A stretch of DNA of 64,000 nt, taken from contig MEDY01000008.1 in the NCBI GenBank assembly GCA_001724265.1, positions 1 through 64,000 of the forward strand, written 5' to 3'. Shown one piece after another: positions 3,880 to 60,102 of this stretch. The position numbers and the translations under genes are program-made. This DNA is from Rhizaria sp. SCN 62-66 (Eukaryota). Under the pieces are notes generated by a model. It worked only from the letters and a program-made list of their open reading frames with translations. It made no database searches and had not been told where the DNA came from. Every line of letters begins with the position of its first letter. The first letter of the stretch is position 1.

Positions 3880-4502
3880 TTCCAGAGGAAAGGGCGCCGC
3901 AGCAGGCTACGGAGAAGATGAACATGGCGGAGAATGGTCGGGTGAATATGGGTTATCGTCGGAGAGTGATAGGACATAGTGCATGAGGTTTTCAAGGTTT
4001 TCTATATTAAATAAAAGTAGTTACATAGATATTCATTGTATAAACATGAGTATTTTAACATTGAACGACCTAAAGAAGTATATTTTGATGTTCTTAAATT
4101 GGCTACGCATCCTTGATCGATTGGGCTGGCTGACCACGATCGCAAGCTGAGAGGTATCCGTTGGAGAAAACTACAATCTCAAAGTGGCTATTGTGACATA
4201 GTTTGATCGTCAAGCATCAAGCCACTCCACTTTATGAAATTAAACTACAAGTAGGCACTTAATTTCTTAGTAATTTGTCTCCTGAAGTCTATGAATGCTC
4301 CTAACACGACAGTTCTCACACTGCTGGCAGGACATTGTTCAACTTTGTTTCACGATATGCCCTCCGATGTAATGCAAGTATTCTTACGATTCATGATGTT
4401 ATTATGTTATGCGTATACCTCAACATTGTGGAAACCAACTGTTATCTTAGTCCCTCTTTGTTTAGTCGTTGAACATCCAACTGGAAGCGCTTATCTGCGA
4501 GA

Positions 4503-7500
4503 ATGAGTAACACTCTCTCCCAGAGTGGCGAGCGCCGTTCATGGCTGTCGTACTCGGCCGGTGGTGCACCCAGCGTGCCTCCGATTGACCTTTCCCGCGT
4601 GCCAGACTACAACGGCTTATTAAAGGTGGCTCGGCCCGTCGCACATCAGCAGATCCAGCAGCGCCCTTTATAGCAACAACAACATTAGCCCGCTTCGTTC
4701 CTACAGCACCAGCAACATCAGCCTTCGAGTCAGCTGCAGCAGCCTCAACCCGCGCAGCCGCATTGCGAGTCGCCGTGGCAACAGCAGCTGTCGGCCAATC
4801 TTTCTCTGATGGGCCTTGCGCCGAACGCACAGCAGCAACGCCAACACCACCACCAACAGCAACATCAACAGCAACAGTTTGCACAGAATCAGCACGGCCC
4901 ACACCCTGCTCCTAGCGCCACCGTCGCTGTGTCCCAATTACAGCCTTCCCAGCCTGCGCCCTTACAGCGTGTGCTAGCGCAGCCGATGCCCTCACGGCCT
5001 GTTGCTGCCCCAGCACCGCCTGCGCCGCCTCAGCCGCAGTCGAAGTGGCACGCTCACTCGCTCGCCTTCGCACCGTCTACACTGCCCCAGCTGCCGATGC
5101 CTTCGGATCACGGCAACAACGGCATTGACAATGGATTTGCGGACGGTTATAACCACGGGTACACTGCTTTTGCAAGAAATAACAATAACAACAACAGCAA
5201 CAACTATCCTATCACTAGCGGTTATGGCGGTAACGGCGGCGGCCCCGTTGGCGGCAGCGGCAGTGCGCTGTGGGGCCGCAGTAACCGGCTTGGCGTTGAC
5301 GACGAGCTGGAGCTGGCGGGGCCGCCGTCGCCGCCGCCGGCGTCCGAGGCGCTGCCGCCGCGCAGCGGGATCTGGTCGAAGCTTAACATCCCCTCTGGGG
5401 CCGAGCTGCGTGCGCAGATGCAGCAGCAACAGCAGTATCAGCAGTACCCGCAGCAGCAACAGCATCAGCAGTTGCAACAGCATTAGCAGTTGGGCCGAGA
5501 GAGAGGCATGAATGCTCTAACCGAGTCCGCCGTCGCCTCAGCTCGCAACTGGCCCGCTGAGCCTGTTGTGAACAACAATTCTACGAGCAGCCCCAATCCC
5601 AATAACAACTACCACAGGCGGGGCTCGTTCGGCAGCCACACTAACGCCACGTACAGCAGCGGTGCACCCGTGCCCGCGCGTTCCTCCGCGACTGTGGGCA
5701 CCAACACGAGCGACAGCGCGCTGGCGGCCGGCATGTTCGCGGACCACCGTCGCGCCGCCGCCGCCGCGCTCGCCGCCATCCAGCCCGGCGCGCCCCTCGC
5801 GCGGCCGCTGCCGGGGCCCGCGCGCGCCGTGCTGCCCGACGAGGTTGAGAGCGCGGCGTCGCGGCGCCGGCAGCAGGAGATGCTGACGAACCTGCTCACG
5901 GTCATGGGCGCCGCAGAGCACCCCGCAGCAGCCGAGCTCGCGGCGCTGGCCGAGCGCAGCAACGCGGCCGCGGCCGAGGCGGAGGCCGCTGTGGTGACCG
6001 CACGCGAGGCCAACAACGCGCGCGAGGGATACGGTGCACGGAAAGAATTTGGCGGCCACAACAGCAACTTTGACAACAGTAGTGGCGGCTCGTACAATGT
6101 CCGGCTCGGACTGGCCCCGCACGGCCCCGGGGCCGGCGGCGCTGCTGGCGGTGGCGGGAGCGAGAGTGCGAGGCGTCGGCTGGAGCTGCTGGAGGTGCGC
6201 GAGATGGCTCCTCCGCCGTCGGTGCTGTTACACTCATCACAGGTACGATTATCATTGCAGTGTCACACATGGACGACAAATCAGTAATTATCGTTCCGCG
6301 CTGAATTTTGATGGTTTAGTCACATACTCATTACTATTATTTTATTGATAATGCTTTCTGTTTAGGGGAGTCTCCCGTTGTTGACTCATCCCAGCGCGCT
6401 TGAACCTCTCGATGCAGAACTGCGCCGTCGCGCTGAGCAAAAGGTACGCTCCAACTTCAACAAACGCTTTGATTTCCTGACGTGAATTATCATTTAACAT
6501 GACAATCTTCTTACCTGACATTGTGTGTCGATATCTAAACATGATTTCTTTCCATCTTGCTCCGTCACAGCTCGCCGTCGCTGCGGCGAAGGAGGAACTG
6601 GCGACGCTGTCCGACTCGCTCTCACGCCTCAGCGTTACCGCCGCGGCCATGCGCGTGGACGCAGCTGCGGGCGCCGAGACGCTTTCCGCCGCCGCGGCTG
6701 CCGCGCGCGAGGACGCCCGCCGGCGCGCGCTGGCGAAGCTGTACCTGCTTGCGGCCGAAGCGGAGCAGGAGCGTGGCCACGCGGGGCGGCTGGGCACGGT
6801 GCTGGCCGCGCTGGGCGACGCCGTGCAGGGCCGCGAGCTGGGCAACGCTGTGGACGACGCGCTGGAGCGCGCGCGGCGCGAGCGCGTGGCCGAGGCTGCG
6901 GCGGAGGCACAGGAGGTGTCGGTCGCGGTTAAGGCTGTGGAGGAGGCCAACAAGGCGCGGCGCGCGCTCGAGGCGCAGCAGCAGGAGCTTAAGCACGAGG
7001 AGCAGGTCAAAGACGGCAGGCTCGACGCTCTGCAGGGACAGCTGGAGGTGCTGCAGCAGCAGTTGCAGCAACAGCACGAGCTGCAGCAGCAGCAGCTGGA
7101 GCTGCGGGCCCAACAGTTGCAGCGAAGACAGCAGCAGCATTAGCAGCAGCAGCAGCAGCAGCAGCGTCAGTCGCCGGAGCAGCGCCCACAGACTCCCCCC
7201 GGTGCGCGCTCGCCGTTCCGTCGCGTCGCCGCGCAGTCACCCTACGCTGCCGCCGCCGCGGTCGCCGCCGCCGCAGCCTCCAAGACCGAGGCCGCGGCTG
7301 CCGCGCGCTCTCTCTCACAGGCGCAGTCCCCCGGCCGCCCCGGCACCGCAGACTCCGCTGCGCGCGGCGGCCCGGGCGCGGCGACGCGCGCGCAGTCGCC
7401 TGCCTTTCGCCCCGCGAGCAAGGGGCGCAACGCGGCCTGGGCGCCCGGTCCGCCCGCGCCGCTGCCCGGCGCCAGCGCGTCAACTGCGACGGGGGGCGTC

Positions 7501-8862
7501 GGCCGCAGCCGCACACGCATGGGCCCTGACGGCGCGCCTCTGACAGCGGCCGAGGCGCTGCGCGTGGCGTCGCCGTCGGCCTACGTCCGGGCCCGCCCTG
7601 CTACCGCTGGTGCAACCGCGAGCGCTGGCGCAACCGCGAGCGCTGTAGCCGGCGGTGCGGGCGCAGCGCAGAAGCGGCGCGGTGCCGCGGAGAGCGCCGA
7701 GCTCGACCTGATGCCGTGCTATCGCCACGCGCGGCGCAAGGCGCAGGAACAACGGCGAGAGGAGGTGCAGCGCGAGCTGCGACAGGAGCGCAACAAGCGC
7801 GCGTGGCTGCAGCAGCTTGAGCAACGCATGATCGCCAAGGCCGAGAAGAACGGCCACGCGTACGGCCACGACGACGCTGACGCTCACAGCCACGCCGCTC
7901 ACAGTCACAATTACAACCACGGCCGCGGCCACGGTCACGGGTCTGTTCAGGGCAAGACGCCGTACGGCGGTGACGAGTCAGTGTATGCGGCGTATCTGCA
8001 GCGCGCGCGGGCTGAGAATGACGCTTTACAAACGCAACAGCAACAGTACCAATTCCAACATCAACAGCAGCAGCCGCAGCCGCAGTGGCCCCAGTACGGC
8101 TCGCCCGCGCGTCCCTTGCTTCCCGGTCATGGCGTCCCCACTGCAAGTCATAGCGGACCTCCTAGCCGTGTTTCAGGACTCGGCGCGCTTGACGCCAGCT
8201 TTAGCATGCTCCAAAACAGCGTTGCTAATGGTACTGCGGTGGCTCAGGGCTCCGGTCCGGGCACCGGGCCTAGCAGTGCTGAGAAAGACGAGACGATGCG
8301 CATACTCCACAGCATGTTCATGCCCCGCTCTCCACTGCGCGACGCCTCTTGGGCCGCGGCGCCTGCACAGGCGATGCGCAATAACGGTGTAGCAATGAGC
8401 GCACCAGCGAACAACGCTGCCGATGACGAGGAGTACGCTGACGACTTTGACGGGTTCTCTGCCAACTCCATGAACGACACGAACAACAGAACTAACGCCA
8501 ACCCCGTGACAGCTGCCGCTGCGTCCCCTGGACCGCGCGCCCCCATTGCGCAGCACGCGTATGGCGCCCCTACAGTTGCCCCGCGCAGCGCGTCGCCGGC
8601 CGCATACGTCGGTTCCGGCAACGACAGCAGCGTGAGCATTTCCGTCGCATCCGACGCCGCGGGCGCCGGCGCGTCCCCGCTTCGCTTCGGCGTGCCAGCA
8701 GGCGGGAGCGCTGGCACGGGAGCGGGCTCACTGGCTGTTGCGTCGGCGGGCGCGTGGCACGGGCTCGACGATGCGGGCGTGTACCGTGACGGCGACTTAA
8801 TGGGCGTGGGCCCAGCGCCGAAGAACCCTTGGTACGGCGTCGGCGTTGTGCCTTCGGGATAA
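4503..8862 (+). CDS. Uncharacterised Gln/Ala-rich coiled-coil protein (~1369 aa); exons 4503-6242, 6366-6443, 6571-8862; in-frame TAG at 4671, 4686, 5484, 7141
   Basis: ORF-track pieces 4809, 5490, 6499 and 7519 join into one frame through TAG codons in Gln runs and two phase-0 GT-AG introns (6243-6365, 6444-6570). Ends in TAA. Confidence 0.75.
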
Positions 8863-9106: not shown

Positions 9107-11379
9107 TTACTTGCGGCTCATGTCGGCAAAAACGGAGAGGTCCTCGCCGTCGTCGACGCCGGGCCCGTGGCCGAAGTGGCCCCGGTACATGAGCTCGGCG
9201 TCAGCGCCGTCGAATCCGTCACCATCGCCGTTTTCGCCAAAGGCGGTGCTGCCAGAAAAGTCGCTCTGTCCGACGCCCGCGCCCAGCCCGGCCGCCGTGG
9301 CCGCCGCGGTCCGGCGCGCTGCGCCGTAGCTGCCGGCGCCCATTGCGCGCGCCAGGAGCGAGTCGCTGAAACCAACCTCGCCGCCTGCCGCGCCGCCCGC
9401 CGTCGCCGCGGCCGCGGCGGCCGCCGCGAGCTCGTTGGCGCGCATGGCCTTCATGGCGTCACACAGGTGCGTGAGCTTGACGAAGTCCTCGAAGGTCACG
9501 ACCTCGTGCGCGGGCTTGCCGCGGTCGCCCATGAGCACGGCGCATTCCTCGGCCGTGACGCTGAAGCCCACCTCGCGCAGCATCGCCGGCACCTCGCTCG
9601 GCGGCACGCCCTTGGGCGCGCGCAGGGCCGGCGCGGGCGCCAGTGCGTGCGGCCGCGCGGCCTCGGCGGCCCGCACGCGTGCCTGTTGGTCGAAGAAGGC
9701 GTAGATGCGCCGCAGGTCGTCGAGCCCGGCCGAGGAGAAGAGCTCGGCCAAGTCCACGAAGGGCATGTTGCGCGCCGCGCGCCGGCGGTCCTGGATCGCC
9801 GCGATCTCATTGGCCAGCACCACATCTGCGTCAGCCAGCGCCAGCGCGGGCATGGGCCGGAACAGCAGCCGAAAGGCTTGGCGGCGCTGCGAGGACGTAA
9901 GCGTCATGGCGCCCAGTTTGAGCGGCGCCGGCACGGCCGTGTTGGTCGTCAGCTCGGGCTGCGCGGCGACCTGGGCCAGGCGCAGGCGCTCGGCGAAGGG
10001 TACCACGACGCCCGCGGGCAGCTGCACCGCGTTGGCGGCCGCGGAGCCCGACAGCGGGCCCGGTGCAGACACGCCGCCCGCCGCGCCGCGCGCGCTGCCC
10101 CCGTTGCTGTTGGCGCCGCGGCCGCTGTTCTGGCCCTGCGTCCCGGCAGCCTCCGCGGTGACGGGGTTGACGGGCACGTTCATGCCCAGGTCGGCGTCTG
10201 CGCCGTCGTCGCCGGGGGAGAAGAAGTCCGCCGCGGCCATGGACACGCCGCACTTGGGCATATCGCTGACCCACTCGCCGTCGTAGACCTTTTCGCGCGC
10301 GCGGTAGTAGTAGATGCCCTGGCCCTCGCGCTTGCCGTTGAGCCACTCGCCCTCGTACACGTCCTGGTTCGCGCGCACAAGCGTGCCAAAACCGCACTGG
10401 AGGTTCTGGTGCCAATCGCCGGTGAAGACGGAGCCGTTAGCCATGTACAGCGTACCCTTGCCCTGGCGCTGGTTCTGGTGCCACACGCCCTCATAGCGCG
10501 AGCCGTCCGGGTAGTACTGCACGCCCATGCCGTCGCGCTTGCCCTCGCGCCAGTTGCCCGCGTACACCTTGCGCAGCGCCTGCGTTGCCGCCCCCGCGCC
10601 GCCGGGGCCGCCGCCGCGGCCGCCCGCGCCGGCCTTCTTGCCGCCGCCAGCAGTGCCGCCACCGGTCGCAGCCGCGGCCGCGGCGGCCGTTGCGCGCTCC
10701 GAGGCCAGGCGCTGTGCGGCGGCCGAGCCGGCGGCCGGAGCCGTCTTGTCCAGCGCCGCCGATGAAGAGGACGATGACGACGTGGCTGAGGAAAAGGAAG
10801 AGGCGGAAGGGTCCGACTTAACCCAGAGCGTGCCGTGTCCGTCGCGCATGCCGCGCTTCCACTCGCCCTCATAGGTGCCCGTGGCCCAGACCTGGACGCC
10901 AAAGCCGTGCTATTTGTTGTCCAGCCAGTCGCCCTTGTACGTCGTGCCCGTCTCCCACTTGGAGGCGCCGGCGCCCGAGGTCGAGGCGCCCGCGGAGGAA
11001 AGGGCGGACGAGTGACGCATGTCCTGGGGCGCCTTGGCCTTGACCCAGTACACAGTCTGGCAGGTGCCCGCCTTGGAGACCTGCTTGTCGCTCGCGCGCC
11101 AAGGTTTCGCAGCTGCATCAGCCTGACGTTGAGCAACGCGTTGCGGCAGAACTGGGGGGTTGCGGAAAGGCGGGGAGCGAGGGCGAGCAAGGGCGAGTAA
11201 GAGAGGAAGGGGACGTGGTCAGAAGATGAGCACCGAGATGAGTAGTGTACAAGTATGAAGTCATGGCGTGAGTATATAATGTAAACATGTCTGTTAAATA
11301 TGGTCGTACCTGCACGAAGACGGTTTAGCTCTTTGAGGGTCGCATAATGTTCCTCCTCAAGAGGAGTCTTGGAAGACAT
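9107..11379 (-). CDS. MORN3: MORN3-like MORN-repeat protein with C-terminal EF-hand-like region; exons 11379-11310 and 11151-9107; in-frame TAG at 10910-10912
   Basis: Tandem MORN repeats (YxGxWxxxxxxGxG) and a MORN3-like N-terminal segment KPWRASDKQVSKAG. Phase-1 intron 11309-11152 (GTACG...polypyrimidine CAG). Ends in TAA. Confidence 0.8.
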
Positions 11380-13118: not shown

Positions 13119-13766
13119 CCTGATCTATATGGAGTTTTTGTTTTAGGTGTCGAGAGTGAAGTGAGCGTGCGTGACGATGCGTAGCAATACTGCACTGTGT
13201 GCAACACAGAGTGTGACTACGAAACAAAAAAAAGAGATATTACAAACAAACACTAATGACACACTCAACGCACCACGTCATATCTTTGTAACACCAGATT
13301 AAACTCTGTTACGCGATGCTGACGAGTAGACTTCGACAAGACTGAACGACGCGTCCCCTAATCTTTACATTTTAGCTTTTAGAGCATGGATATGATGACT
13401 GAAGCAATTTTGTTTTGAACTCTACAGACAAAACCCAACATTAAATCTCAAAGTATCGTGATAAACCCGCTCTGGCGTTCTGATACGGCATACATAACAA
13501 CATACTATCATCGCGTCTCCGATGAGGCGACGTAGCCGCTCGGTCGAACGCTCCCTCATGGCATCCGAATAGTTCCTACTAATGAATAGGACGCCGGCTA
13601 GCTAAGATACCGATATAATAATCTCCCAGTTGAGGATGTTTTTTATCACCCACATCTATCGCGCATCTAAAAGATATTGTCTAACCTGTCTCCGCCCGTC
13701 TTTCTCTTGTCAGCCCCACGCCACCCGTCTTTATCTGCTCCCGCATCCCCAGACTCAGGTGCTGGG

Positions 13767-14398
13767 ATGGCTTCGCTTCCGCCGGATCAGCCGGGATCAC
13801 CCACACCGGCTTCCGCGGAAGTCGGCGCAGCAAGCGATGCCCCTGCTGCGTCGTCATCTTCTGTCCTGGCGACTGTCACCCGCCCGCTGGCCTCGACCGC
13901 TTCGACGCTAGCATCGCTCGCGCGCGCCGCCGTCGCGACCCCAGGGGCCGTCGCCCGCAGCGCGCGCTCACTCGTCCTGCTCACCCGCCCAGTTGTTCTA
14001 TTGCTTCTGGCCCTGCGTCGCCGCGGCGCCAAATCGGCCCACACAATGACGTCTGCCGATGCAAACATCTCCAGTGCTGCCAGGGTTCGCAAGCGTGACT
14101 TGATGCGCCTTTTCGCGCACCTGTCTTGGAACTACCCCCACGCGCTCGCGGCGCTTCTATCGCGTTCCAAGACTCTCCTGCTGTCGCCCGCAGCGGTAGC
14201 CGCCGCTGGTGCCGTCACTGACGCTGCTTCCACACCGGCTGCGTCAGCTGCGACTCCCGAGGCTGAGGCGGAGAGAGAGGCGGTGCTGCTGCTGGCACCC
14301 GCACTGGCCACGCTGTTCCGCTTTCTTTGGGAGGCGCGCCCCACAGCCGCGGGCCTGACCGCGCTTGCCGCACTCGCTCCCACCACACACAACAACAA

Positions 14399-14429
<31 letters not shown>

Positions 14430-17400
14430 GGGTGCGCGCTGGCGGAGCGGCTGCGGCGAGCGCAGTAGCACGGTTGGGGCGCGGGGCAAGAGCGGCTCGT
14501 CGCCATGCTCAACAGCATGCTTCCCCGTGCGCTGCGCCCCAGCCACGCCGTCAGCAGTATCGCTGCTGATGGTAGCTTGAGCGATATAAGCCCAGAGCCC
14601 GCGTCTCCGTCCGCTCCCGAGTCTGCGCCTGCTGAGTGGCTGCGCTCGCTGCTGTCGTAGTTCGCTTTGCCCCCTGAGCTGTGCACTGCCGCCGCCGCCG
14701 CCGCCGCACCACTGCTGGCGCCCCTCAGTCTCGGCGGCGGCAGTGGCGCAGTGTCAAACGCGGCTGCTGTGAGACTGCACGTCGAGACGGCGGCTCTCAG
14801 CGGCGACGTTGTCTACGCTTGCCAGAACGCTGACACCGCAGCCGACTGCGAGCTGGGCGACAGCGCATCGACTGACAGTGTACCGAGGGACCGTGGGCCG
14901 GCTGACTGTGGGCCCTGGTGCGATTGTGAGCACCGCCGCAGCGTCACCGTCCCGCTCACGGTCACGCTCGCGTTCTCCCGCGCACAGTCCGCTGCCGCCC
15001 CGGGCTCTGCTCCTAACGCCGACCACACCAACAGCACCACGTCGAGCAGCAGTGCGCCAGGCGGAAACGCCGCGAACGCTGTGCAGACCGTGTGGGTCCC
15101 GCTCGCGCTCTCTCTCACGCTGGCTCTGCGCCCGCCGCGCGCGCTGCCTCCTCTGCGGGCCGCCGCGGCCGACGCGAGCGTTGAGTTCGAGCTTGCGCTG
15201 ACCTCGGTTGGCCGCGTCACCACAACTGCGACCACCACTGCATCTGCGACCGCGACGGCGACCGCGGGCGGCGGCGCTGGGCGCGCCACCGCGGGCGACG
15301 CGGGCTCAGCGTGTGCTGGAGCTAATGGGGCGCCGGAGCCCAGCGTTGTCATGCCCTCCAGCTCACTGCCCACGGCTGCTTCATGTTACGGTGGCGGCAG
15401 TAACGAGACTTGCGCTGGCCTGGACGCCGCCGCCGCCGCCGCCGCCGCAGTAGACCAGGGCCGTGGGCGTGACCGCCGGCGTGACCGCACGCCCGGCGCA
15501 GTGCGCGCTGTCACGCAGTCGCGCTCACGATCACGCCCACGGTCACGCTCGCCGTCGCAGACGCGGCGACTGGCGTCTGCCGCGACCGCGACTGCGGTGG
15601 CGGCTGCGGCCTTGCCCGCGCTCGCGCCCTCGGTCACCGCAGGCTCCGGCTGGGGCTTCGGCGCCATTTTCGCCCCCGTGCGCTCATTCGCCTCGGCCGC
15701 GGCCGCGCTGGTCTCCGCGGTCGCCGTGCCGTCGTTCGACGCCGAATCTAAGCCGCCACCCGCAGAAGTCAAGCCTGGTTCGACGGCCCCGCGCAGCCGC
15801 AGCAATAGCCGCACGCGCACCCGCAGCCGCAGTTGCAGCCGCGCTGTCCCACGTGAGGGGTGCGGCACGGGCGTGTGGCTAGGCCCCGTTACGCTGCTGC
15901 GGTCTGTCGAGGCCACCGCGCTTGCGACGGCGTTCCTCAGTTATCCGCAGTCCGCTACCAACTGCCACAGCAATAATGCCAGCACTGCTGGCGGCAGCGC
16001 CACCGCGCCAGCGCCTACGCCTGCGCCGAGCGCGGCTGCTGTCCTACTCTTCGCCAGCGTCACGCCGCCGCTGAGCAACGGCGACGAGGCCAGAGCCGCC
16101 GACGCCGCGGCCGCAGCGGCCGCGAGAGCGCCCCACGGGCTGCTGGTGCTTCCCCCCGCGCTGCTGCCGCTGCCGCCGCGCACCGCGCTTGCCGTCGCGC
16201 CCGCGGTCGCGCTGCCCCCCGCGCTCGCGCTCGCCGTGGCCTCAGCGCGCTCGGCGTGCCCGCCTGCGGTCCGCGCCGCCGCCGCCGCGCACGCCGCCGC
16301 CGCCGCCATCGCCGCGCTCGGCCGCGTCCCCACGGCCGCCGCCGCGCTGCTGGCCGCGCTCTCGCAGCAGGCCGGCGCGGGGACGGAGACGGAGATGGGG
16401 ACGGAGTCCGGGATCGTGACCGTGCGCTACGCAGTGCCGGTCTGCTGCCGCCGCCGCCGCCACCGCGCCGCGCCCGCGCGCACGTCGCTGCAGCTGCCGC
16501 GCGCCTTCCTCGCCGCACACTTGCCCGGCGCCAGCGCCAGCGTTGACGCTGACAGCATTGCTGACGTTGTGTCGTCATCATCGCCGCCGCTACTGCCGCT
16601 GCCCGCGGCGTACGCGCACGCCGCGCCGTACGCACTGCACCGCGCGGCGACCGCGCTGTCGCTGCTCGACGCCGCCGCGGGCGCGCAGTGGGTCAAGTCG
16701 GCCAGCGCGCGCAACGACGCCGCGCGCGCGCGCGCCGCGAAGCAGCCCGGCGGCGCGGCATCGCTGCCCGCGGCCGGCGCGGCGGTCTGGGGCGCGCCTG
16801 CGCCGACGGACATCGTGCTTGCCAGCACTCGCACTCATACATGCGCAGACACGGCTGCGGCCGCTGACGCGCCGTTAGACGTTGTGCCAGGTCTACGCGC
16901 TGACAGCGTTGTGACGTCGTTCCGCCTCTTGCCAGAAGGCTGCGACGCCGCCACTGGCCCAGGCGCTGGAGCGACTGCCAGCAGCGGCAGCTCCGCGGTG
17001 CCGGCTGCCGGCTGGGTGCCCCCGCACGGCGGCGACTGCGAGCAGGGCGGGCCCGCGACCGTGGCGCTGGGCTGGGGCGCGTGGCGTCGGCCTTGCGGCA
17101 ACAGCGACACCGGGGCCCGCGGCGGCGGCGCTGAGCGCGCGGAACAGCAGTGGCGCGAGCGGGTCGGCGTTTGTGCCACTGGCGCTGCCGTAGTCCCAAC
17201 CTCAGCCGAGTCCGCCGATTTTGCTACTGACGCCACGGCGGATGCGGAGGACACGACTGAGGAGGTCGAGGTCTGGGTCCTGCGTGGCGGCCTGACTTTA
17301 AGTTGTGACGGGCAGACTGTACGTATATCCCTGGCACAACATTCTTGGGAGTGCGGGAGTCAGAGTTCGACTCTGGCATGGTTTGCTAACAACGCTTTCA

Positions 17401-20063
17401 CTGCCACTTTTACGCTTGTGCCACCCAACAGCGCACTTGCGGTTGCCTGTGTAGCTGTCACTCCCAATACTGCTAAGCCTGCGATCGCGGCTCCCACTCT
17501 CACGATCGCACATCGCAGCTCTGCTCGCCGCGCCCCGATGCCCGCCACGGTCGCAACAACTCTTACTGGCGTTCTCTCTTCGGCCACGCTCTCGCTGCAT
17601 GACAGCAAGGACAGTGGCCACACGGCCGCCACGAGCAGCCTTGCTGTCGACTGCGACTGGGCGACTTTGGTGCGCAGCACCGCTCTGCCCGCTCTGATGA
17701 CAGTGCTGCACACCACGCTTTCCGCTCTCCCGGCGCGTGTGCTCACCGGCATCCTGGCGGCCGCGTCCGCGCTGCAGCGCGCACAGCCGCAACTGCATGA
17801 GAGCGCGTCGTGTCTCTGGGTCGAGTCGCGCTTGCAGTTCACCCCCGCTCACACCGCGAGTCATGCGGAGAGTTCAGAGCGTCGTTCTATCTCTGGCATT
17901 GAGATTAAGCTTCGTGGCTATGCCCGTGCTCGTGACAGCGATGACAATAATGACAGCAGCACGGGTGGTTGGACGTTGAACCTCGCACCGTTGTTGCGTG
18001 TATACGCTGCTGACGCCGACATCAGCGTCAGCCTTACTCTGTCTGAGCCTTCGACGCAGACGCAGACAGCTGTGCTGCATTGCTACTTGGCCGCGCTGCA
18101 CGGCGCCGACATCGCCATCGGTCCGTATCCGCACGTCAGCACTGCGGTCACTGACGGCACCAGCAACTTGTCGGCGCGTTTCGCCATGCCGTATCACATG
18201 TGCCAGATGCTGACCATCATGACGCCCGCCGCCACACTGCCCCTCGCTCTTGGTGCAAGCGGCTGCGGCTTCCGCGCCACGGCCGCGCCGCTGCTTGCGA
18301 TGCGCCGCGGCGTGCTGCGGCTGCGCCCGCGCTGGCCCGGCGCCGACGCCGACGCCGAGTGCATCGCATCTCAGCCGCCGCCCACGGTTGCCGAGCTCGC
18401 TGCACTGCGCAGCAAGCTGTCGAACGCCTCTAACGCGTCCAGTGTGAACGCGACCCCCGCGTCTGCTGCTGCGGTTATCGGAGCATTTTCTGTGTCCGCT
18501 GTCTCTGCGCCGAACGCGGTGCCTGTGTCGCCGCTGCCGCCCGCTGTGGCCGCCGCTGCCGCTGCCGGAGGGCGCGGGTTCATCGTGCTCGGCATGGAGT
18601 GGGTGCGTCAGTGTCTCTCCACTGTCGACCGCGCGATCATCGCCACGCTCACCAACCGCGACCACAGCGGTGCGACTTCTGTGGCCGTGGAGCTGGACCG
18701 ACTGTGCATTAACGGGTACCCCGCGGACGTCATGCCGACGCTGACCGCCGCCGCACCCGCGCCTGCCGCTGCTACGGCCGCGCGCCGCAAACCCACCGGC
18801 GCCTCGGATCCGCTACAGCTGGCGCCGGCGCAGCTGCCGTGGGCACTGTTCCGCTACCCCGCCGCCTTTCTGCCCCCGCGCGTTGCCGTCCCTAGCGCTG
18901 CCACCGCTTTGTCTGGCGCCGCGGGAGCGTCGCTGTCGCCTCCGGGGCTCTCTTCGCCCATGTCTCCGACCGCGGCTGACGCCGGCGCGGAGCCTGGACC
19001 CGCGGCTTCTCCCTCGACTGCCACGCCGTCACCGCTCCTGTCGCCGTCGCCGCTTGCGCTGTCAACCGCGTCGTCCCTCTCGTCTCCAGTCGCGCTGTTA
19101 GACGCGGCGGCTACGCCCAATGGCAAGCCCAATGCAGCCAAACTGACCAAGCCCGGCACCGGAGCGGCTCGCGCAACGGGCACCAAACCCGGTGCGAAGC
19201 CCACTGCGCCGGCCAAGGCGTGGCTGACGGCCCCGCTGCCGCGTCTTTCCGCGGCGGCCCAGCGTCTGCGCCTGCGCTTCTGGGCGCAGCTGGTGACCGA
19301 CCTGGCGCGCTTCACGCCGCTGGCCGTGCCTACGGCGTGGTCCGCGACCTGGGCCTTCGAGCACCATCTCCACGCCACACTCGCGCGCTCGCCGCTCGCG
19401 CCGCTGCTCTTTGCGGGCTCCGGCGCTTCGGCGGGCGGCGCTAAGGGCGCGCCTGAGATCTGGCCCGTGATCGCCGTCAAGGGGGTCGACTGCACGCTCA
19501 CAGCAACCCCAGTCGCGGACTTCAACGCTGCAAACACCGGTGCCGAGACCGCGAGCAATGTTGACTGGGCGCAAGAGAGCGATGTGGCGATGCGGTGGGA
19601 CGCGCTCCACGGCATGGTGCTGTACTTTGCCGATGACAGCAAGCACGACCTCAAGGTCAAACCGCACGCGCTCAACCCGCCAGCGCTTGCGGCTGCTGCA
19701 GCTGCGGCGGCGGAGCGTGGTCAGCCGGGCGAGCTGGGTCGCTCTGGTTTCGACATTGTGTTCTCGTTCCCCAACGCTCCTGCTATCAATCCCTGTGACT
19801 CAACATCTGTGAGCTCAGGACCGTCGTTCTGCGAAATCGGTCTCCGCGGGGCGACGGCGCAGCTCACCGTTGGTGCTGTCGCAGCGCCCGCGCTCCCCAG
19901 CAGCCAACCATCGTCGACCCCGACCAGCCCTGTTCCAACGACGGGCGGGCTTCCGCCATACGGTCCCGCGTTTGCGCGTCGGCTGCAAATGGCGAGTGGT
20001 CCAGCGGCTGATATGCTTGGCGACGGCACGAATGACACTGTGCTCTTTGTTTCTCCCCTCTAA
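13767..20063 (+). CDS. Large uncharacterised Ala-rich protein (~2098 aa); in-frame TAG at 14466 and 14658
   Basis: ORFs 13677-14468 and 14667-20063 are in the same frame and separated only by two TAGs within GC-rich coding-like sequence. Ends in TAA. Start uncertain; no recognisable domain. Confidence 0.65.
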
Positions 20064-41320: not shown

Positions 41321-43897
41321 TCCACACACACTGTCGGGACAAGGGGGAATAGGTGGACAAAGGGAAGCCATGTGCGGCGAGAGTGAGCGGTTTGCAAGGA
41401 GTTGATTCGTTAGGTACTTGCAATAACAACCGTCGTTTCATGCAATGTTCATCGCATCAGACTTCATGCATGTTGTGATGGCCAAAATCGAACGAGCACG
41501 ACGTCTCAAAGTCCATCATCCCAGCGACAAAGCTTGCCCGAATCCGACCGAGGAAGCATGCAGCAAAGGTCGATCAAATCGACACTGAAGACTGAACATA
41601 CGAAGTGAAACCCACAAAACGGTACAGGAATAGAAGTAATTACCCGAGACGAGGCACCAAACCTGCACACCAGTCGTTTCTCGCCCCCTTCGACCGACCA
41701 ACCTCATCAACAATGTATTTTCTCATTTTTCGGTCGCAGCACCCAGTCCCACCCCACCAACCGTCGTGTGGCTGGTTGGCTGGCTGCGAGCCAAACTGAG
41801 CATCGCATCTGGATATGTATGACGGGCTATATGTCGTCTTGTTGAGATCTAACTTTGTAGCCAAGATTTAAACATGCTTTGGTGCTTTGATCTAAAATAT
41901 TCTCGTGAAGGGGCGTCATATACCCTGTGTTCCACGTTCCTGGGATACGGCTTCTTCGGGAAACGCACCCCTCAAGCTTAGCGGGCACTTAGATGATACT
42001 GCGTGGGCCGCGAACTGCGGCTATGCGGATACTGTTCATCACTGAGCTAGGCCCGGAACATAGCATCACACCTTGCCAATGCGTTTTACTTATCGCGTTG
42101 TAGCTTGCTCCCAGCTTGCTTTTGCGTGAGGAAACTCGATCGGCTTGCCTTCGGTTTGGCCGTCCCACCCTCGCTTGAAAGTGCGGATTTAACGGTCAGA
42201 AATGACGTGTCATGATAGTGTTGTTGGTCTCAAGTTTTCTTTAATCATTGGAATATGCGAATCATTTGCTGATATCTTCCTTAATGCTGTGTATTCTTCA
42301 CGGGCCGGCATTGTGAATGATTCTGCCCATAGTCTCATTTTTGCGGGTCGACTGCTCTTCTTCCTGGTTGAACGGGATGATCGTGCATTCTTTGGTTTAA
42401 CCTCGACAGATCATTTAACCACCTATATAACGACTATATGTGACTAAGCTGTTCTTGTAGTTGATTGTATTGGGGCTGAGATGCGCCACTTTATCCCACC
42501 GGGCCTTTCAGGTGACCGTGAGCAAATATGGCGATTCACTACCTTCTGCATGTTTTATGTTCAGTCATGTCCTTAGATCATTCATTCTTTTGCATGAATC
42601 GAATAACCCATGTCTTTGTGTTCTTTTTTCGACATAGACTCGCTCATGTGTGGCATGTTTGTGTGTGGAGTGCCGTTCTTTTCGGCTCTTCGCCAAGGCT
42701 CGTTGGAAAAGGAGCAATATCAGGGTTGTTTATTCATGTTTAATCGGAGGTCTAAACACGATGTACGCCATTTCTTCAAGTTTGCGTATTATGCCGAGTG
42801 GTTTGAAGTATTTACTAGGAACATTATATTCTCTGTTTACGATTCACTCATCGCGAGAGGTGCGAATAGTGTTTGAATTTCAAATCATCCCCACAGTCAC
42901 CCCTGATGACACATACACAGCCTCTGCTTCTCTGATAGAAAGATACGCCGGGAAATATGAAATTATATTTCTGTATGGCCGAATTGTTAGATACGAGATC
43001 TGCCCCCCGCTTGTCATGAGCGCGTCTCTGCGACGCACAGTGTCCTGTAATTTAACGGGAAAGATGACTGTTCACCTCGAGGAGGCGGCTTGTCTTTTTC
43101 CACACCTGTCCCCGAACTTTGATAATAGCGTCACGTAAACATGGTGAAGTAGTATGTTCACTACGTAAAAAGCAACGCCCACCATCTGAGCACCCGTGCC
43201 TTGCACGATAACGCTTATGGTGCTCTTTATCCCAACATTCCAGACCATTTGCACCGTGGGGTGGGCCCCGAGAAGGGTGGGGGGTTGAGACACAGTTGGA
43301 CTACATCAGATTGATTTAAACCACATGTTATCATTACTGTTTCTGCCTGCTTGTGCTGCCATGACGAATTTTCGTGCTTAAGTTGCATTACTTCTTTATT
43401 TTTACGCTGTTGCATGTGCAATTCGTCTGTAAATCATGACCGAAAAACTTCCACAGGCCTTACCCCGGCCCCCTCAGCCCCCCAACACCGACGACGGAAC
43501 TCGTTCTAAAGCAAGCGTTCTGGTTCGTAGTGATGCAATGTTTAGCATTTGCTATATTTTCTGACTTGTTTATAATTAGTTTCTTACTTTTCTTCCCCCC
43601 TCTTCGATTTCTATCTCGCGGAAACCTTCGTAGAAAGCCACAGGGACCTCACGACGACGATTGTGGACGCCCCAGCTTACCCCCGAGATATCCCCTTGCA
43701 AACGTGTCCGCAAGGTTATACCTCTTTTTCCGGTCTCTTGACTTGATTTTTTATTATATAACTTGATTTTTCGAGTTGTGTCAGTGTTTGTCTTCGGCAC
43801 AGGTGTAGCTACTGTGGCTTGTACCGCCCACTTGCCCCCCTATCTGCACGCACCCCACGCGCCTCGCCAAGCCACGTAAGGTCCCCGAGACGTCCAC

Positions 43898-46800
43898 ATG
43901 TCTACCGAGCCTCCGAGGGGTCCTTCTACTCATGACAGTGTGAGCACTCCCCAGTCAGCCCGCAGGAAGCCCACGCGTACGCACACTAACACCGTCGAGG
44001 CTCGCCCTGAGCCTCCCAGTTCTGTGCCCCCGAGTGCCAGCACAGTTGGCGACGACTCGGCGGCCCAGCGCGTTGCTGTCGGTAATGACACACAACCGCA
44101 TGCCGGTCACCGACTTGACTTCGGCGGGAATGCACCGTCTTTCTCGCAAAACGCCTACATTCCTGATGCAACTGCCACATCTTATTCTGCTGGTACCACT
44201 GCATCCGTGGCAGCCGTCGTACCCATTTTCAACGTCCACGGCAATCCTGTTGCGACCCCTCCCGCGTCACTGACCGCCAAGGCTACGACGGGCGCGCGCC
44301 CCACAGGTCCGCCTCCGGGTCGTCGCGGCGTCAAGCGCGCCCTGACTGCCGCCACTGCTTCCAGGGCCAGAGACGCCGTAGTTGCGCTCTCGCCCGTTCT
44401 GACCGCAAATGCCGCGGTGCCAGCTGTGGTTGCCACCGCGAACGTTGAGATTGAGACTCGCTCTGTGACGGACACTGCGTCGAACAGCTCAAGCAACTTT
44501 GCGTCCGCCTCTGTGTCCGCCTCTGCTTCCGCCTCTGCGTCCGCGGCCGCCGTGGAGTCGCCGGTCTCTGCCGACGACTCTGTTGCATCTGCATCTGCTT
44601 CGGCCTCTGTCCCTGACTTTTCCGCTGCTTCTGCCTCTGCCTCAGTCTCTGATTGGGCCTCCGTCCCTGACTCTACCTCTGCTGCCGCCAGCACCGCTAC
44701 TGCCGCTGCCCCTCCCTCCGTGGCTGGCAGCGTGGCTCTCGGTTCTGGCTCCAGCAGCAGCATCGGCAGTGCGGTTGGCTCCAGGCGCCCGTCACCCTAT
44801 CCGATTCCGTCCCTTTCGGTCCCCAGTCCCTCTTTCGTCTACTCAATCTCGGCCTCTGTTTCCGTCGCCGGCCCTGCAGCCGACTCTGCCTCGCTTGCGA
44901 ACGCTCTCCCTGTTGACGGCATGGAGGCTGCTGCGGCCTTTTTGATGCGTGAGGACAACAACAACGCCACCCCAGCAGCCCAAATCAACAACACCGATGC
45001 ATCTGCTCCGTCAGCCTCTCTTTCCTCCGACCTCATCGAGCAGCAGCAGCCCCACCAGCAGCCCCAACTCCAGCCGCAGCAACAACAACAGCAACAGCAG
45101 CAGCAGTAGCATCAGATGCTGCAAGCGTGGTTCAATCAGATCTCGTCTTAGACCGTGTCGCAGTACATGCTCAACGCTCTCAAGGAGCACATTAGTTTCT
45201 ATGACAGCCCGCTTAACTACCTCTACCCACCGTTTTCACCCGTTCCCACGAACGACAAGGACGCCACTGCGCTGCTTGCACCCATCGACTACCCGAACTA
45301 GAACGCTACCCCCAGCCAGCTGTCTCTGGTAGTGCCCCTGCCACCGCAGCCTAAGTCCGCGAGTGTCCCGTTGCCGCCCACGCTCTCGCCGCTGGCGCGC
45401 GTGCTTGTGCACAACTATGTGTACGCAGAGTTGGAGGTCGCCACATCTAAGGAACCTCCTTTGGGCAATCGCGATGTGCCGTCGTGGTTCCACTTCTACT
45501 TGCTGCCGCGCGCACTGCAGACGCGGCTGTGCCAAACTTTGCCGCCATTACTCCATGCCTCGGTGTGCTTTGAGGCTGCCGCGGCCACCAAAGGCGTCTA
45601 CAGCGAGGCACTGCCGGTGCTTGCGCGCCAGATCGCCGAAATCTTGCCGATGCGGCCAGTCATGTCCGTCGCCGACACCCGGCCCACTGTCGATGACCCC
45701 GACAAACAGACTTATCCGCGTGCTAGTACATGGCGTCGCGCACTCACCGGTGTCGTCGTCGATTTTCGTCGCTTCGTCCTTGAACAAACCCGGCACGCTG
45801 CTGCTGGGCTGCCGCAGCCAATGATGCTGTGCTACCGCAATCGCTCTCCAGGCATGCACGCCCCCTCCGAGCTGCGCTGCTTTGCCGGCGCGGCTGCGGG
45901 ACTAGTGGCGCGTGATGATGACGGTAACCAGATCAACGATGCCATTAACAACTACAGTCTCAACGATAACCACTTTAGCAACGATCCGGCTTCGATTAAG
46001 GCCGCTATTGCAGGGACTGCGCGCGATGCTGAACTCGCACGGCTGACACGCATCATGAAGCGAATGCATGGGCTGCATACACGCGTGTATCGTCTGCAGA
46101 CATTGTATCTTGACCTGCTCAGGTCATGTCCTGTCGACATCTTTGAGTCGCTTCCTAATAGGGACGCTGATATCACTGCGATTGCTAGGGGTGCGATCAA
46201 CGTTTGTTTGCCGACTTCTATGATGTACTTTTGTGCGCCATCAAGCCGTGAGCCGACGACGGAGGATGTACGCGCTATGATCCAGGCTGCCTCGGCCCGC
46301 CACGCGCCGCCGCGCTTCTTACCACTTCCAAGCGATTTCTCTGACGTGTCGCGCATGTCCGTCGTAAGCGTTTTCAACGTGATGGGTTGCTCGCTTGAGA
46401 AGGCGAATCAACTGCGCGATGTGATCGCTGACGCAGAGGCACGTGTCAAGGGCAGCAACGATGGACAAGAAGCCAAGCAGCGCGCTCTCACTGATCTGGG
46501 TAACCTTCGCAGTGGCGTGGGTAAGTGGCTAGGCGAGCAGAAAACCGCCTGGGAAATGCGTCTTTACATTGCCCGCTCACACACGCGACTTGACTTCGCT
46601 CACCATGTTTCGTGCACCATGATGGACCGCTCTTCGACTGCTATTGCGATCCGTCCGCTGGTGTTGGGACAGGAGCGCGTGCACTGGGCTCACGGTGTTC
46701 CCAATGCGGTCAGTGGTCTCTGTTCAAAGCTTGAGTACGTGATTTTTGAGGTACTTTTTTCGCACGACCATCCCTTATTGCTGGACGAGAATAAGGATTG

Positions 46801-48592
46801 CTTGAAGGATGACCACCCGAACATGCGCTATCTCAACGCCTTTAACGCCTGGTCTGTCTTGGCCGCCGTGGCAGACATAGCCGTGCCTGCGACAGTGACA
46901 TCACAGTGGACATCATCCCCTGAAGCCGCGCGCGCCGCGCTCCCGCAGTGGCTCACTACGCAGCGGCGCCTAGCCAGCTTGGTGCCCCCCGCTCACCTAT
47001 CACTGGCTGACCACGACTGGCGCCATGTCGTCAGCGTCCTACGACCCAATATCATTCGTTGGCTTTCTCTGCAACGCGTAAGTCATCGTCTTAATGTGCA
47101 CACAACCGACTCAGCTCTTCGCCTCTTCGATATTCTTTTGTGCTCGGCGACGACTGATGTGCTGCGGAGCCCCTTTGCTGTCGTTGACACATGTTTGGAT
47201 CTGGCTGCTAAGGTGCATGACCGCAATGTTCTCTACCCGCTTGGCCGTGCGGCGGCTGACCTTCCTTTCTGTTTAAATCTCGAGGGTCAGGTTTTCGATC
47301 GGCTCGGTCACTCACTGCTGCACGCCACATCTGCCGATTATGCTGAGCGCATGATTACGACCGTTCCTCTGACACGCTCTATGTTGCCCCCCTTTGCGTT
47401 CAAAACTTCGCTCGCCGCGCGCATCCTTTTCCAGCTGTTTGACGCTGAAGTGGCCGCGCGGATCCGCGAGCGTGTGGCTGAGACTCGCCAGGACTGGCTC
47501 GCGCGCAAGAGCCCCCAGAATGTGTTCTCTGACGTTGAATGGCTGAAGCGGATGTTTGCGAGTGAAATCCATAGGAACGTGTCCCATCTGCCTGAAGTAC
47601 CATCGCAATTGAATGACAACACAATGGGACCTGATGCATGGCTGACGAAGCTTATCCAATAGCAGTTCACCACTATACGTAAGTCACTGCAAGATGTACC
47701 AGTCTCGGACTCCGTTGGTCTTGGTCCTGCCGTCTCAGATAACGTGGAGTAGTACATCAAGGGGCTCGCCCCCGCCACACTAATCATTGACGCATTGTGG
47801 GCCCTGCAATGCGCCGTGTCTCAGCCGATGCCCACCGCGGTGGCAGCGTCGCGCGGACTTGCCCTTCATGCCATCATCCCAGCAAGCATCCAGCGTTCCG
47901 AGAGCGCCACCACTGTCGAACTCCTGCTGCCGCATGTGGTGGATTTCGTCGACGCGATGGTTGAGATGGACACAACGTCTACGTGCGAAGTTACGCCTAC
48001 TAACGCGGACATCGACGAATCAGAGCACCAGAAGACCTGGCGCATCCACCCACACTCTGTCGCGGCGGAGCTTGTGCTGCGCACTGTGGACCGGCGCGTG
48101 TTCCACGACGCCGCCTTCTTCACGCGGCTCGCAGAGTACGACGGCGCCACGCCGCTCCAGTCTCCTGCGGTGACGGCGGCTGCGGGACTGCTGGTTGCGA
48201 TGATGCGGTTGCGCATTAACGCGGTCCAGTGGTTCGCGCAGATTGTCAGTCTCTTCGGGCTCCTTCCGGCGGACGTGCTTGCGGCCCGGGACAGGATTCT
48301 GGTGACGTTTCAGTTCATTTTTTGTGGAGAGCGCATCTCGCGCCTGCTCACGGTCGCGATGAACACTGAGGGCCAGTTTTACGTCTTCGATGCCACGGAA
48401 GATCCTCTGCCCGAGGTTGTGCTTCCTCGGGTTGATCAACTTCCGAAGGATACCTTCCAGCTGTTGACGATGCCGTGGACGGGACCCTTTTGGGAGTCGA
48501 CACTCAGGGCCCCACCTCATCCGCAAGATTCACACGAGCCCACTCTTGAGAGCGAGCTCGATGACATGCATGACGGCGAGGATGGCCGGTAA
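43898..48592 (+). CDS. Uncharacterised protein (~1564 aa) with Ser/Ala-rich N-terminus and globular-looking C-terminal part; in-frame TAG at 45107, 45149, 45299, 47660, 47750
   Basis: ORFs 43898, 45332 and 47795 share a frame. The linking segments, read by hand, contain only TAG and no TAA/TGA. Ends in TAA. Confidence 0.75.
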
Positions 48593-52900: not shown

Positions 52901-53436
52901 GATGCCTGCTCGTCGTCGGCGGCTTCGGCGGCGGCCGCGGCTGCGGCGACCGCGGCGGCTGCTGCAGCGCTCGCGGCCGCGGCGTCGGAGCTGGGATCGG
53001 CGGCGGCAGCTGCTGCGGCCGCGGCGGCCTCATTCTCCGCGTCGATGCGGTCGCGGCGGCGGCGGTGGCGACGGCGGCGCGCGGCGGCAGCTTCTTTCTC
53101 TTCCTTGGCGATTGCGGCAGCAGTTGTGGCCGACATCAGCACGCCCATTGCGGACTGCTGGCGCTGCTGCAGCGCGCGCTGCTGCTCCTGATGGTGGACC
53201 TGCGTCGAAGTAACAAGTGCGGCCGCAGCGGCGGCGTCAGCCTCGGCCACGGCACGCTGCAGCAGCACTGCGTTGTTGGGGAAACCGGAAAGAAACCGGT
53301 TCGTGGCAATGGCTGCGCGACGGGCACCCTCTTCTTCCTCGGAGAAGATGGCCGGGGGCGGCGGAGGTGGTGCCCGGCCGCGTGGTAAGTATGACACCGA
53401 GCGCCAGTCGACGCTCGGCGTTTTAAGGCCCAACAT
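49933..53436 (-). CDS. Ala-rich protein with PGP (STPG/SHIPPO-like) repeats (~1167 aa); in-frame TAG at 52369-52371
   Basis: ORFs 52369-53436 and 49933-52272 share a frame across one TAG. Motifs GPGSYAP, GPGSYDP and TPGPGFY. Ends in TGA. Confidence 0.65.
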
Positions 53437-53919
53437 GAGCGGTCAGTGACGTGTTGAGCGCCTCGGCGACAGTAGGTGGGTTGTCAGTCCTTTGCGACTG
53501 ATTTAGAAGTTGGTTATCGAGGCCTATACACAAGTTGAGACGATATAATTACGGATTTACATGAGATATAATTGGGAAAATTGGGGAAAACTACTTGCAC
53601 TGCTAGTTTACGATAATGTTAGTTGGATTTCACAGAAACGGATGGATATGGCGCTTCGTCGAGAAGTTTCGATGCTGAGTTTGGACCGCGGGTTGTTCAA
53701 ACTAGTCCGACTTTAAGTCGCTGAGTCAACATGGTCTTTCCGTTACAGTTTTTGCTGTTGTAGTATGTTTTTTAAGAACTAATATCTCACATTATATTTC
53801 AATTCAACTTTCTATGAAGCTTAGTGGCGTGTATATCGAGCACTGATTCTACAGACTCCCACCAATCACCAACTTCGACGAACACTCCTGCTATTGACAC
53901 CGCGCCCAGCGCGTCTCTG

Positions 53920-59900: not shown

Positions 59901-60102
59901 CCGCGTCGCCAACGTCGGGCCCGCAAGCGAGTTTTACCTGATCGCCCCGCCACAGCCGCACGCTGCTGATTATCACTCATCTCAATTTGTTGGCGTGAGA
60001 GAGGACGCGAACGAGAGCGCGTACGGTGCGCCTTCTGGGTGGAGTGCCGCAGCTGAGGATGACATGCGCGCACCCGGCGGAAGGCAATTATACCGGCGTT
60101 AA
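53920..60102 (+). CDS. Large low-complexity protein (~2060 aa) with an Sfi1/CCDC191-like Trp-periodic helical segment; in-frame TAG at 58489 and 59470
   Basis: ORFs 53824, 58549 and 59479 share a frame and are separated only by TAG. Segment with LLLFHGWRPWQRL, AFAQWR, VLGEWW and RRAWARL. Ends in TAA. Start uncertain. Confidence 0.7.

Follow-up and report, generated by a model that had tools for sequence, protein, structure and literature searches.

UAG as an infrequent internal sense codon, best explained as glutamine, in the nuclear genome of Rhizaria sp. SCN 62-66

The genetic code that reads UAG as glutamine (Gln) while UAA and UGA end translation (table 15) was reported in Iotanema spirale (PMC5304391, PMC9161772). 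In this fornicate, 204 UAG codons were found in 126 genes, internal rather than terminal, and the release factor eRF1 carries T32G, read as a lost contact to the third-position G (PMC5304391). The same assignment, with UAA as a stop, was described in the ciliates Hartmannula sinica, Trochilia petrani and Protocruzia tuzeti; in Hartmannula and Trochilia, UAG makes up 18.5-31.8% of Gln codons and occurs in ~80% of genes, and a suppressor tRNA was not detected there (PMC11687900). Two further systems use UAG differently: the rhizarian exLh (Sainouroidea), in which UAG was reassigned without UAA, to leucine, and eRF1 carries L69A (PMC5304391), and the ciliate Oligohymenophorea sp. PL0344, in which UAG encodes glutamate (Glu) and UAA lysine (PMC10553269). 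Here, we analyze a gene with four in-frame TAG codons at 4503-8862 of a 64,000-nucleotide stretch of Rhizaria sp. SCN 62-66 (contig MEDY01000008.1 of assembly GCA_001724265.1, positions 1 to 64,000; the whole of this stretch is referred to as the window), together with the code in which this gene is written.

In this genome, TAG is an internal sense codon and TAA and TGA are the stops, as a genome-wide change of the nuclear code. The best explanation, which we consider fairly probable, is that UAG is read mainly as Gln, the table-15 meaning. The code itself is already known; the instance described here is real and probably independent of the earlier ones. As in Iotanema, UAG is internal, UAA and UGA are stops, and eRF1 is altered at T32 (PMC5304391), whereas TAG amounts here to only 0.56% of Gln codons, 30-50x lower than in Hartmannula and Trochilia (PMC11687900), and the eRF1 changes are T32S, G57S and T58K. 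Not found in print are the lineage, this very low usage and the apparently Glu-type decoder. In the literature accessible to us, short of most subscription journals and supplements, no report of a rhizarian or cercozoan code with UAG as Gln was found, and a term search of two 2026 Rhizaria papers gave no mention of a nuclear code change; exLh, possibly a member of the same supergroup, is the one rhizarian case among the papers cited (PMC5304391), and there UAG is leucine.

The gene at 4503-8862

The gene is described by a three-exon model, in which splicing is predicted from splice signals and phase:
4503..6242, + strand: exon 1, 580 codons, with three in-frame TAGs; the protein of 1,369 amino acids is rich in Gln, Ala and Pro and of no known family
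4671..4673, + strand: in-frame TAG, codon 57; unchanged in the X3 and X4 contigs
4686..4688, + strand: in-frame TAG, codon 62 (CAT TAG); unchanged in the X3 and X4 contigs
5484..5486, + strand: in-frame TAG, codon 328 (CAG CAT TAG CAG); unchanged in the X3 and X4 contigs
6243..6365, + strand: intron 1, 123 nucleotides, GTACG..TTTAG; predicted from splice signals and phase
6366..6443, + strand: exon 2, 26 codons; predicted
6444..6570, + strand: intron 2, 127 nucleotides, GTACG..CACAG; predicted; present in the X3 and X4 DNA contigs
6571..8862, + strand: exon 3, with a helical, coiled-coil-like start, one TAG and a TAA end
7141..7143, + strand: in-frame TAG, codon 797, within a CAG run

Under the standard code, the region splits into frames of 265, 266, 220 and 572 codons. 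With TAG as sense, the same region has two frames, one of 604 and one of 793 codons, which two phase-0 introns (GTACG..YAG, 123 and 127 nucleotides) would join into 1,369 codons with TAGs at codons 57, 62, 328 and 797 and a single final TAA. The GTACG donor of these introns is the donor seen across the genome. The TAGs at 4671, 4686 and 5484 lie in the frame of exon 1 and that at 7141 in the frame of exon 3; another TAG, at 6363, belongs to the acceptor of intron 1 and is no codon. The original prediction, which placed four TAGs in Gln-rich runs of one gene and quoted three stretches containing them, agrees with the sequence letter for letter, and all four fall within the model. No Pfam or NCBIfam family matched the protein.

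The Gln codons of the gene comprise 102 CAG, 28 CAA and 4 TAG. All four TAGs have at least three Gln codons among their eight neighbours, as against 11% of gene positions (p about 2e-4 if the sites are independent, in a gene that was picked for its Gln-tract TAGs). The shared context CAT TAG, pointed out at the same time, occurs at three of the four sites (Fisher p=0.0006, post hoc) and at two of 42 coding TAGs in a wider sample, so it describes this gene and is no rule; as a decoding signal, CAT-TAG was rejected on the same 2/42. The "many" CAT CAG pairs nearby come to three CAT-CAG and two CAT-CAA in the gene, and a 12-mer around CAT-TAG is present at both 5478 and 7135.

Two other studies supplied runs X3 and X4, and contigs of these runs extend over the TAG positions 4671, 4686 and 5484, differing in 0-1 letters; no difference is listed at a TAG. 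An assembly error is therefore unlikely. At 7141, the TAG falls within a repeat, which none of the listed pieces of other runs bridges, and no CAG/TAG polymorphism appeared in four other runs among the 40 of 89 differences listed. The identical DNA in two other studies speaks against the idea that the TAGs are artefacts, whether assembly errors, pseudogenes, or codons edited in the mRNA (A-to-I, giving Trp, or U-to-C, giving CAG). Pseudogenes would also accumulate TAA, TGA and frameshifts, and editing to Trp would place a residue 18 bits below Gln in the domain scores given below and would leave the amber tRNA of this genome needless. The contigs of a polyA library, which map to 8018-8241 and 8431-8810 in exon 3, leave room for editing: none of those listed spans a TAG, a point that also weighs against the preferred reading of TAG. 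Taken together, artefact or editing can hardly be credited.

TAG as a sense codon across the genome

The behaviour of the three stop codons was analyzed in five contigs totalling 864 kb, or 2.5% of an assembly of 34.9 Mb in 714 contigs. In a leave-one-contig-out approach, each contig was scored by a codon model built from the remaining four; the frame remained coding behind 18 of 45 TAGs, none of 92 TAAs and none of 93 TGAs, compared with 4002 of 5337 CAGs; the remaining 27 TAGs are mostly weaker internal sites or lie just inside introns. Of the 230 sites, 72 have a splice donor motif just upstream; once these were removed, coding continued behind TAG in 26/29 cases, behind TAA in 3/64 and behind TGA in 4/65 (26/29 versus 7/129, p=3e-20, in-sample model). 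Three of the 29 donor-free TAGs leave coding, one with 1,161 open codons behind it and one three codons before a TAA, and none is a clear terminator; no clear case of TAG as a gene end was found in the 864 kb. The table-6 code, in which both UAA and UAG are Gln, was rejected, as internal UAA is not supported by either coding-continuation test.

Among 142 kinase matches genome-wide, nine contain only TAG, one only TAA, none only TGA, and four contain mixtures; the TAGs of the nine TAG-only matches divide into four codons of the kinase core, four intron acceptors and one TAG that lies in an insert. Internal TAGs are also present in a MORN3-like gene of the window and in the following two genes:
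L001 = G000:C63:103370-103699, - strand: eRF1 with internal TAG
L094:6191-6853, - strand: organellar RF1 with internal TAG
The TAG of eRF1 corresponds to position 107, in the N domain of the only eRF1 gene found; read as a stop, it would be lethal. Both release-factor genes seen carry an internal TAG, though only ~1 codon in 4,500 is TAG. For eRF1 this could be a feedback control, if some termination at UAG remains, and it could also be chance.

If the code were standard and its stops leaky, the TAGs would be nonsense alleles passed by a few percent of read-through in a Gln-rich context (the QXQ effect). The many TAGs in Gln tracts and the C that follows 20 of the 42 coding TAGs are in line with this, and QXQ read-through with Gln insertion is known in yeast (PMC13192750). 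In yeast, however, the effect amounts to 2-8% and is most pronounced at UGA (PMC13192750), whereas internal TAA and TGA were seen here at 0/185 sites, and four serial TAGs would leave almost no protein. In eRF1, kinases and MORN3, TAGs also occur away from Gln tracts; no TAG was seen as a clear terminator, and a cognate tRNA exists. We regard the leaky-stop reading as very improbable and largely refuted. In practice, gene calling with the standard code splits TAG-bearing genes: the stored proteins P0339 and P0404 are fragments of genes cut in this way.

Several conserved positions of eRF1 are changed. With numbering counted from the NIKS motif, eRF1 has T32S, G57S, T58K, L124M and K130Q; at each of these columns, 115-118 of 118 homologues have the same residue. 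T58K, which we take to resemble the KATNIKD motif of Tetrahymena, is common to the closest relative P0125 only, and P0125 retains GTS. In contrast to exLh with its L69A (PMC5304391), L69 is kept. T58K and G57S are not mentioned in two eRF1 papers. Judging from these substitutions, the changed eRF1 would bind UAG weakly, and its recognition of this codon is predicted to be reduced.

TAG is at the same time the rarest codon: 188,687 coding codons include 42 TAG, 6246 CAG and 1197 CAA, so that TAG makes up 42/7,485 Gln codons, and TAG/CAG is 0.007 as against 0.165 for TTG/CTG. It is richer in the window (11/496 Gln codons) than in the remaining sample (31/6989). No TAG codon was found in 115 domain matches (18 dynein, 54 kinesin, 43 DEAD-box); four TAG-only kinesin, DEAD-box or dynein matches turned out on inspection to hold intron ends, not codons. 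Since this genome combines in-frame TAG, at below 1% of Gln codons, with a candidate decoding tRNA and a changed eRF1, it may show an early stage of reassignment, at which the codon-capture and ambiguous-intermediate models could be distinguished.

The residue read at UAG and its candidate tRNA

The enrichment of Gln neighbours that the original prediction called for is present beyond the gene: 8 of 42 coding TAGs have at least three Gln among eight neighbours, a property of 28% of CAG, 2% of GAG and 3% of CGG codons. Gln fits the neighbour profile of TAG best of 20 residues, Met being 26.8 and Glu 46.5 log units lower. In resampling, none of 5000 draws of GAG sites reached the observed TAG context score, which 93% of CAG draws do, and a classifier put the CAG-like share of TAG contexts at 0.80 (interval 0.55-1.0). 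Since context tells the origin of a TAG and not its meaning, protein sites were tested.

In the sample, paralogues of the 42 TAG sites were limited to MORN repeats, and a Pfam scan of 34 TAG-bearing stretches gave one firm domain (Med14) and two weak matches. Among nine domain sites, four lean to Gln, one to Glu and four are neutral, and none is an invariant Gln. At the TAG site of a CaMK-like kinase, 16 homologues at >=55% have Gln in 6 cases, Lys in 4 and Glu in 1, and both sister sequences (support 96/90) have Gln; the TAG of a NEK kinase aligns with a Gln of NEK1. In homologues, the TAG column of the MORN repeat has Gln 17 times, Glu once and Arg 87 times out of 210. In a ubiquitin-like domain, TAG stands where five distinct ubiquitin copies of the same genome have CAG. 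The organism's own kinase paralogues do not discriminate between residues, and in organellar RF1, at a site outside the PDB alignments, Gln and Glu are tied.

Pfam bits, summed by hand over eight sites, are lower for Ser (494.4), Leu (490.2), Tyr (489.7) and Trp (482.6) than for Gln (500.8), and Leu, Tyr, Trp and Ser, 7-19 bits worse, were ruled out. The exLh meaning (UAG=Leu, table 16) is also rejected on other grounds: besides lying 10.6 bits below Gln, Leu has a context score 37.6 log units worse, and the candidate tRNA has a variable loop of 4 nucleotides and lacks a long variable arm. For a direct TAG/CAG comparison, two metagenome scans for a relative's contig (closest relative P0002, with a 76% identical SKIP) gave none and one distant locus, respectively.

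A pattern search found one tRNA with a CUA anticodon (amber tRNA), near 76,050 of G000:C84. It scores 58 bits in Rfam, lies between ordinary nuclear genes with a T-run directly behind it, and has an unremarkable folding energy (z -1.5). The ARAGORN label 'Pyl' derives from the anticodon; the body matches tRNA-Glu, and its longest matches among phage records, with weak E-values, are annotated as tRNA-Glu. A broader CUA/UUA pattern matched 54 times, compared with 94 for the control, with no further such tRNA among the few checked, and none of the 54 is an anticodon variant of tRNA-Gln, in a search that would miss intron-bearing or unassembled tRNAs. Behind the T-run, L043:1400-1488 is a GC-rich, hairpin-like stretch that repeats the first seven bases of the tRNA and has a second T-run at its end.

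Some features of the amber tRNA would favour Gln. Besides its CUA anticodon it has U1-A72, G73 and U35, and G73 is tied to Gln charging in bacteria. U1-A72 and U35 are tied to it as well, and amber tRNAs with a weak 1-72 pair insert Gln in E. coli (PMC9976931). Apart from these features, the tRNA has C32-A38, where the organism's own tRNA-Glu has C38. The engineered human tRNA-Glu(CUA) V13 has the same combination of Glu body, CUA and C32-A38, and the pair raised suppression >20-fold (PMC12204705).

A number of observations weigh against Gln as the residue, or against the way in which it would be read. TAG contexts are slightly less Gln-rich than those of pure CAG (p about 0.02), and a 50:50 mix of CAG and GAG is only weakly rejected (p 0.09; 0.014 with flanking bases). 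In the summed Pfam bits, Glu and Lys (501.7 each) tie with Gln. The TAG column of eRF1 holds Glu 106, Asp 11, Val 1 and Gln 0 times in 118 homologues, the sole Val belonging to the closest relative. The amber tRNA is identical to the organism's own tRNA-Glu(CTC) at 47/73 positions, acceptor stem and T arm included, and to tRNA-Gln(CTG) at 33/73; it has the set U11-A24, U13-G22:A46 and no 47 that marks the tRNA-Glu of E. coli (PMC9976931). The synthetic V13 with C32-A38 inserts ~95% Glu in human cells (PMC12204705). A CUA decoder derived from tRNA-Gln is what is predicted for table-15 members, and that of Iotanema, though not seen, was predicted to be of this kind (PMC5304391); here the only candidate is Glu-like. 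In human eRF1, finally, T32S had little effect at any of the three stops (PMC3632111). Of the proposal that TAG is a third synonymous Gln codon, the sense reading and the Gln-like contexts stand, and full synonymy is qualified by the 0.56% share, the lack of TAG in the 115 domain matches, the tie of Gln, Glu and Lys, and the Glu-like tRNA.

An alternative is UAG as Glu: the tRNA would retain its Glu identity, and the Gln-tract TAGs would be tolerated Gln-to-Glu substitutions arising by a transition in CAG. The Glu-type body and identity elements and the 106 of 118 Glu at the eRF1 column agree with it. Human tRNA-Glu(CUA) is charged by glutamyl-tRNA synthetase as well as its parent is and inserts Glu (PMC12204705), and in PL0344 UAG=Glu occurs together with a tRNA-Sup(CUA) that, as here, is nearest to tRNA-Glu (PMC10553269). 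PL0344, however, has ten such tRNAs, a reassigned UAA and UAG at conserved Glu columns (PMC10553269), whereas this genome has one tRNA, UAA as a stop and Gln-like contexts; when examined in the same terms, it shows the Glu-like tRNA and neither conserved Glu columns, apart from one Glu site in eRF1, nor Glu contexts. A purely GAG-like origin is rejected by the contexts (0/5000), four sites lean to Gln and one to Glu, and the synonymous GAG-to-TAG changes to be expected at conserved Glu are absent from the 142 kinase matches. We consider UAG as Glu quite unlikely.

Ambiguous decoding, with Glu delivered by the amber tRNA, Gln by wobble of tRNA-Gln(CUG) and perhaps some residual termination, would confine TAG to places where both residues work. 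It accounts for a Glu-type tRNA alongside CAG-like contexts and fits the tie of Gln and Glu, the TAG/CAG ratio of 0.007 and the lack of TAG in the 115 dynein, kinesin and DEAD-box matches; near-cognate tRNA-Gln is known to insert Gln at stops in yeast (PMC13192750). A young, unambiguous Gln code predicts equal rarity, though, and with no TAG on an invariant Gln or Glu column the data do not separate the two. We judge ambiguous decoding improbable, if less so than UAG as Glu.

In the preferred reading, with UAG mainly as Gln, the single-copy tRNA with its CUA anticodon and C32-A38 pair would decode UAG and be unable to pair with UAA. Although its body is of tRNA-Glu type, it would deliver Gln, either because its identity has switched at the anticodon or with the aid of the multi-copy tRNA-Gln(CUG) wobbling at the first position. 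Inefficient decoding, or a young change, would lead to TAGs that arise from CAG by C-to-T and are kept mainly in tolerant Gln-rich regions. In this scheme we infer the expression and charging of the tRNA, the specificity of eRF1 and the age of the change. The discrepancy between a Glu-type tRNA and Gln-type sites bears on tRNA identity and on the design of suppressor tRNAs.

A search of 185,579 genomes with two patterns, taken from different halves of the tRNA, led each time to one and the same set of three assemblies labelled Clostridia, and no viral contig with an amber tRNA of the same type was found with the two patterns. The CUA tRNA of one of these assemblies (L159/L163) agrees with the tRNA described here at 49/58 core positions, with compensatory changes in the stems, although the search patterns force part of this core identity; its acceptor stem is unrelated (3/15). 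The other two are L161/L164 and L162/L165. Possibly, then, the amber tRNA came from a bacterium or phage by horizontal transfer, which we offer as a lead and not as a tested result; the same appearance could come from an old tRNA-Glu of eukaryotic or mitochondrial descent. As a tentative and rather doubtful extension, a Glu-type suppressor tRNA, possibly of such origin, may have begun an ambiguous-intermediate stage, in which UAG no longer ends genes and is read as a mix of Gln and Glu, or as Gln by a switched tRNA, and in which the UAG of eRF1 itself may feed back on termination.

The surroundings of the Clostridia-labelled tRNAs have features of their own. L164:1952-9855 is a cluster of 25 tRNAs, the CUA tRNA among them; its contig has a length of 254 kb, is binned as Clostridia and is probably a jumbo phage. 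A gene end near the cluster resembles what we take to be a T4-type capsid protein. L163:6886-8745 (+) encodes a sensor histidine kinase of 619 amino acids with three in-frame TAGs, adjoining its response regulator and the CUA tRNA at 5969-6044. Its neighbours have no TAG, and it is possibly a local suppressor-dependent gene; no relative was found, and Gln, Glu and Lys tie.

Lineage and other features of the window

The lineage is probably Cercozoa, although weakly placed from the sequences at hand. The small-subunit (SSU) rRNA is eukaryotic and very divergent, with four group I introns (L004:1501-5945, G000:C706); the first of these has a long, possibly coding insert, perhaps akin to a His-Cys box homing endonuclease gene. 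The genome is GC-rich and intron-bearing and has many dynein heavy chain genes, from which a flagellate may be deduced, and the stretch itself turns up in metagenome runs from bioreactors, wastewater and sludge. The CaMK-like kinase is part of a subfamily of 23 rows (support 100/99) in which a single member is named, that of the cercozoan Mataza sp. D1. Matches of SKIP and eRF1 gave no close named relative and no placement. The ubiquitin genes begin MS-MQIF, and this extra MS resembles the rhizarian marker of one or two additional residues at the junctions of polyubiquitin (PMC3014934), although no monomer junction is assembled. In L035-L042, ubiquitin occurs as single-unit genes (MS-MQIF start, short tail), as ubiquitin-L40 fusions and in a 695-codon frame with an internal repeat, and several copies have small deletions.

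Five further regions of the window contain TAG as an internal codon:
9107..11218, - strand: MORN3-like gene; TAG (10910-10912) within a MORN repeat, where the X3 and X4 contigs are unchanged
13671..20063, + strand: frame of 2,130 codons, opened by two TAGs (14466, 14658)
43880..48592, + strand: frame of 1,570 codons, opened by five TAGs (45107, 45149, 45299, 47660, 47750)
49933..53442, - strand: frame of 1,169 codons, opened by one TAG (52371)
53818..60102, + strand: frame of 2,094 codons, opened by two TAGs (58489, 59470)

In the MORN3-like gene, an X4 contig is 86% identical over window positions 10172-10453, with mostly third-position changes, which points to a related species in that sample. 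The C-terminal third of the 53818-60102 (+) product consists of Trp-spaced helical repeats with no Pfam match, which we take to resemble the centrin-binding repeats of SFI1. Three other genes have no internal TAG in their likely coding parts: 2272-4020 (-), a PAP2-family membrane protein; 34358-35935 (-), the SKIP/SNW splicing factor; and 36331-38676 (+), a C2-domain inositol 5-phosphatase-like gene. An MRE11-like gene at 20289-26956 (-) has two long frames with Metallophos and Mre11_DNA_bind; its N-terminal extension is very long and of low complexity, and there are large inserts. Near the start of the window, positions 970-1668 are a short stretch of tandem repeats, coding-like and rich in Pro, Gly and Trp.

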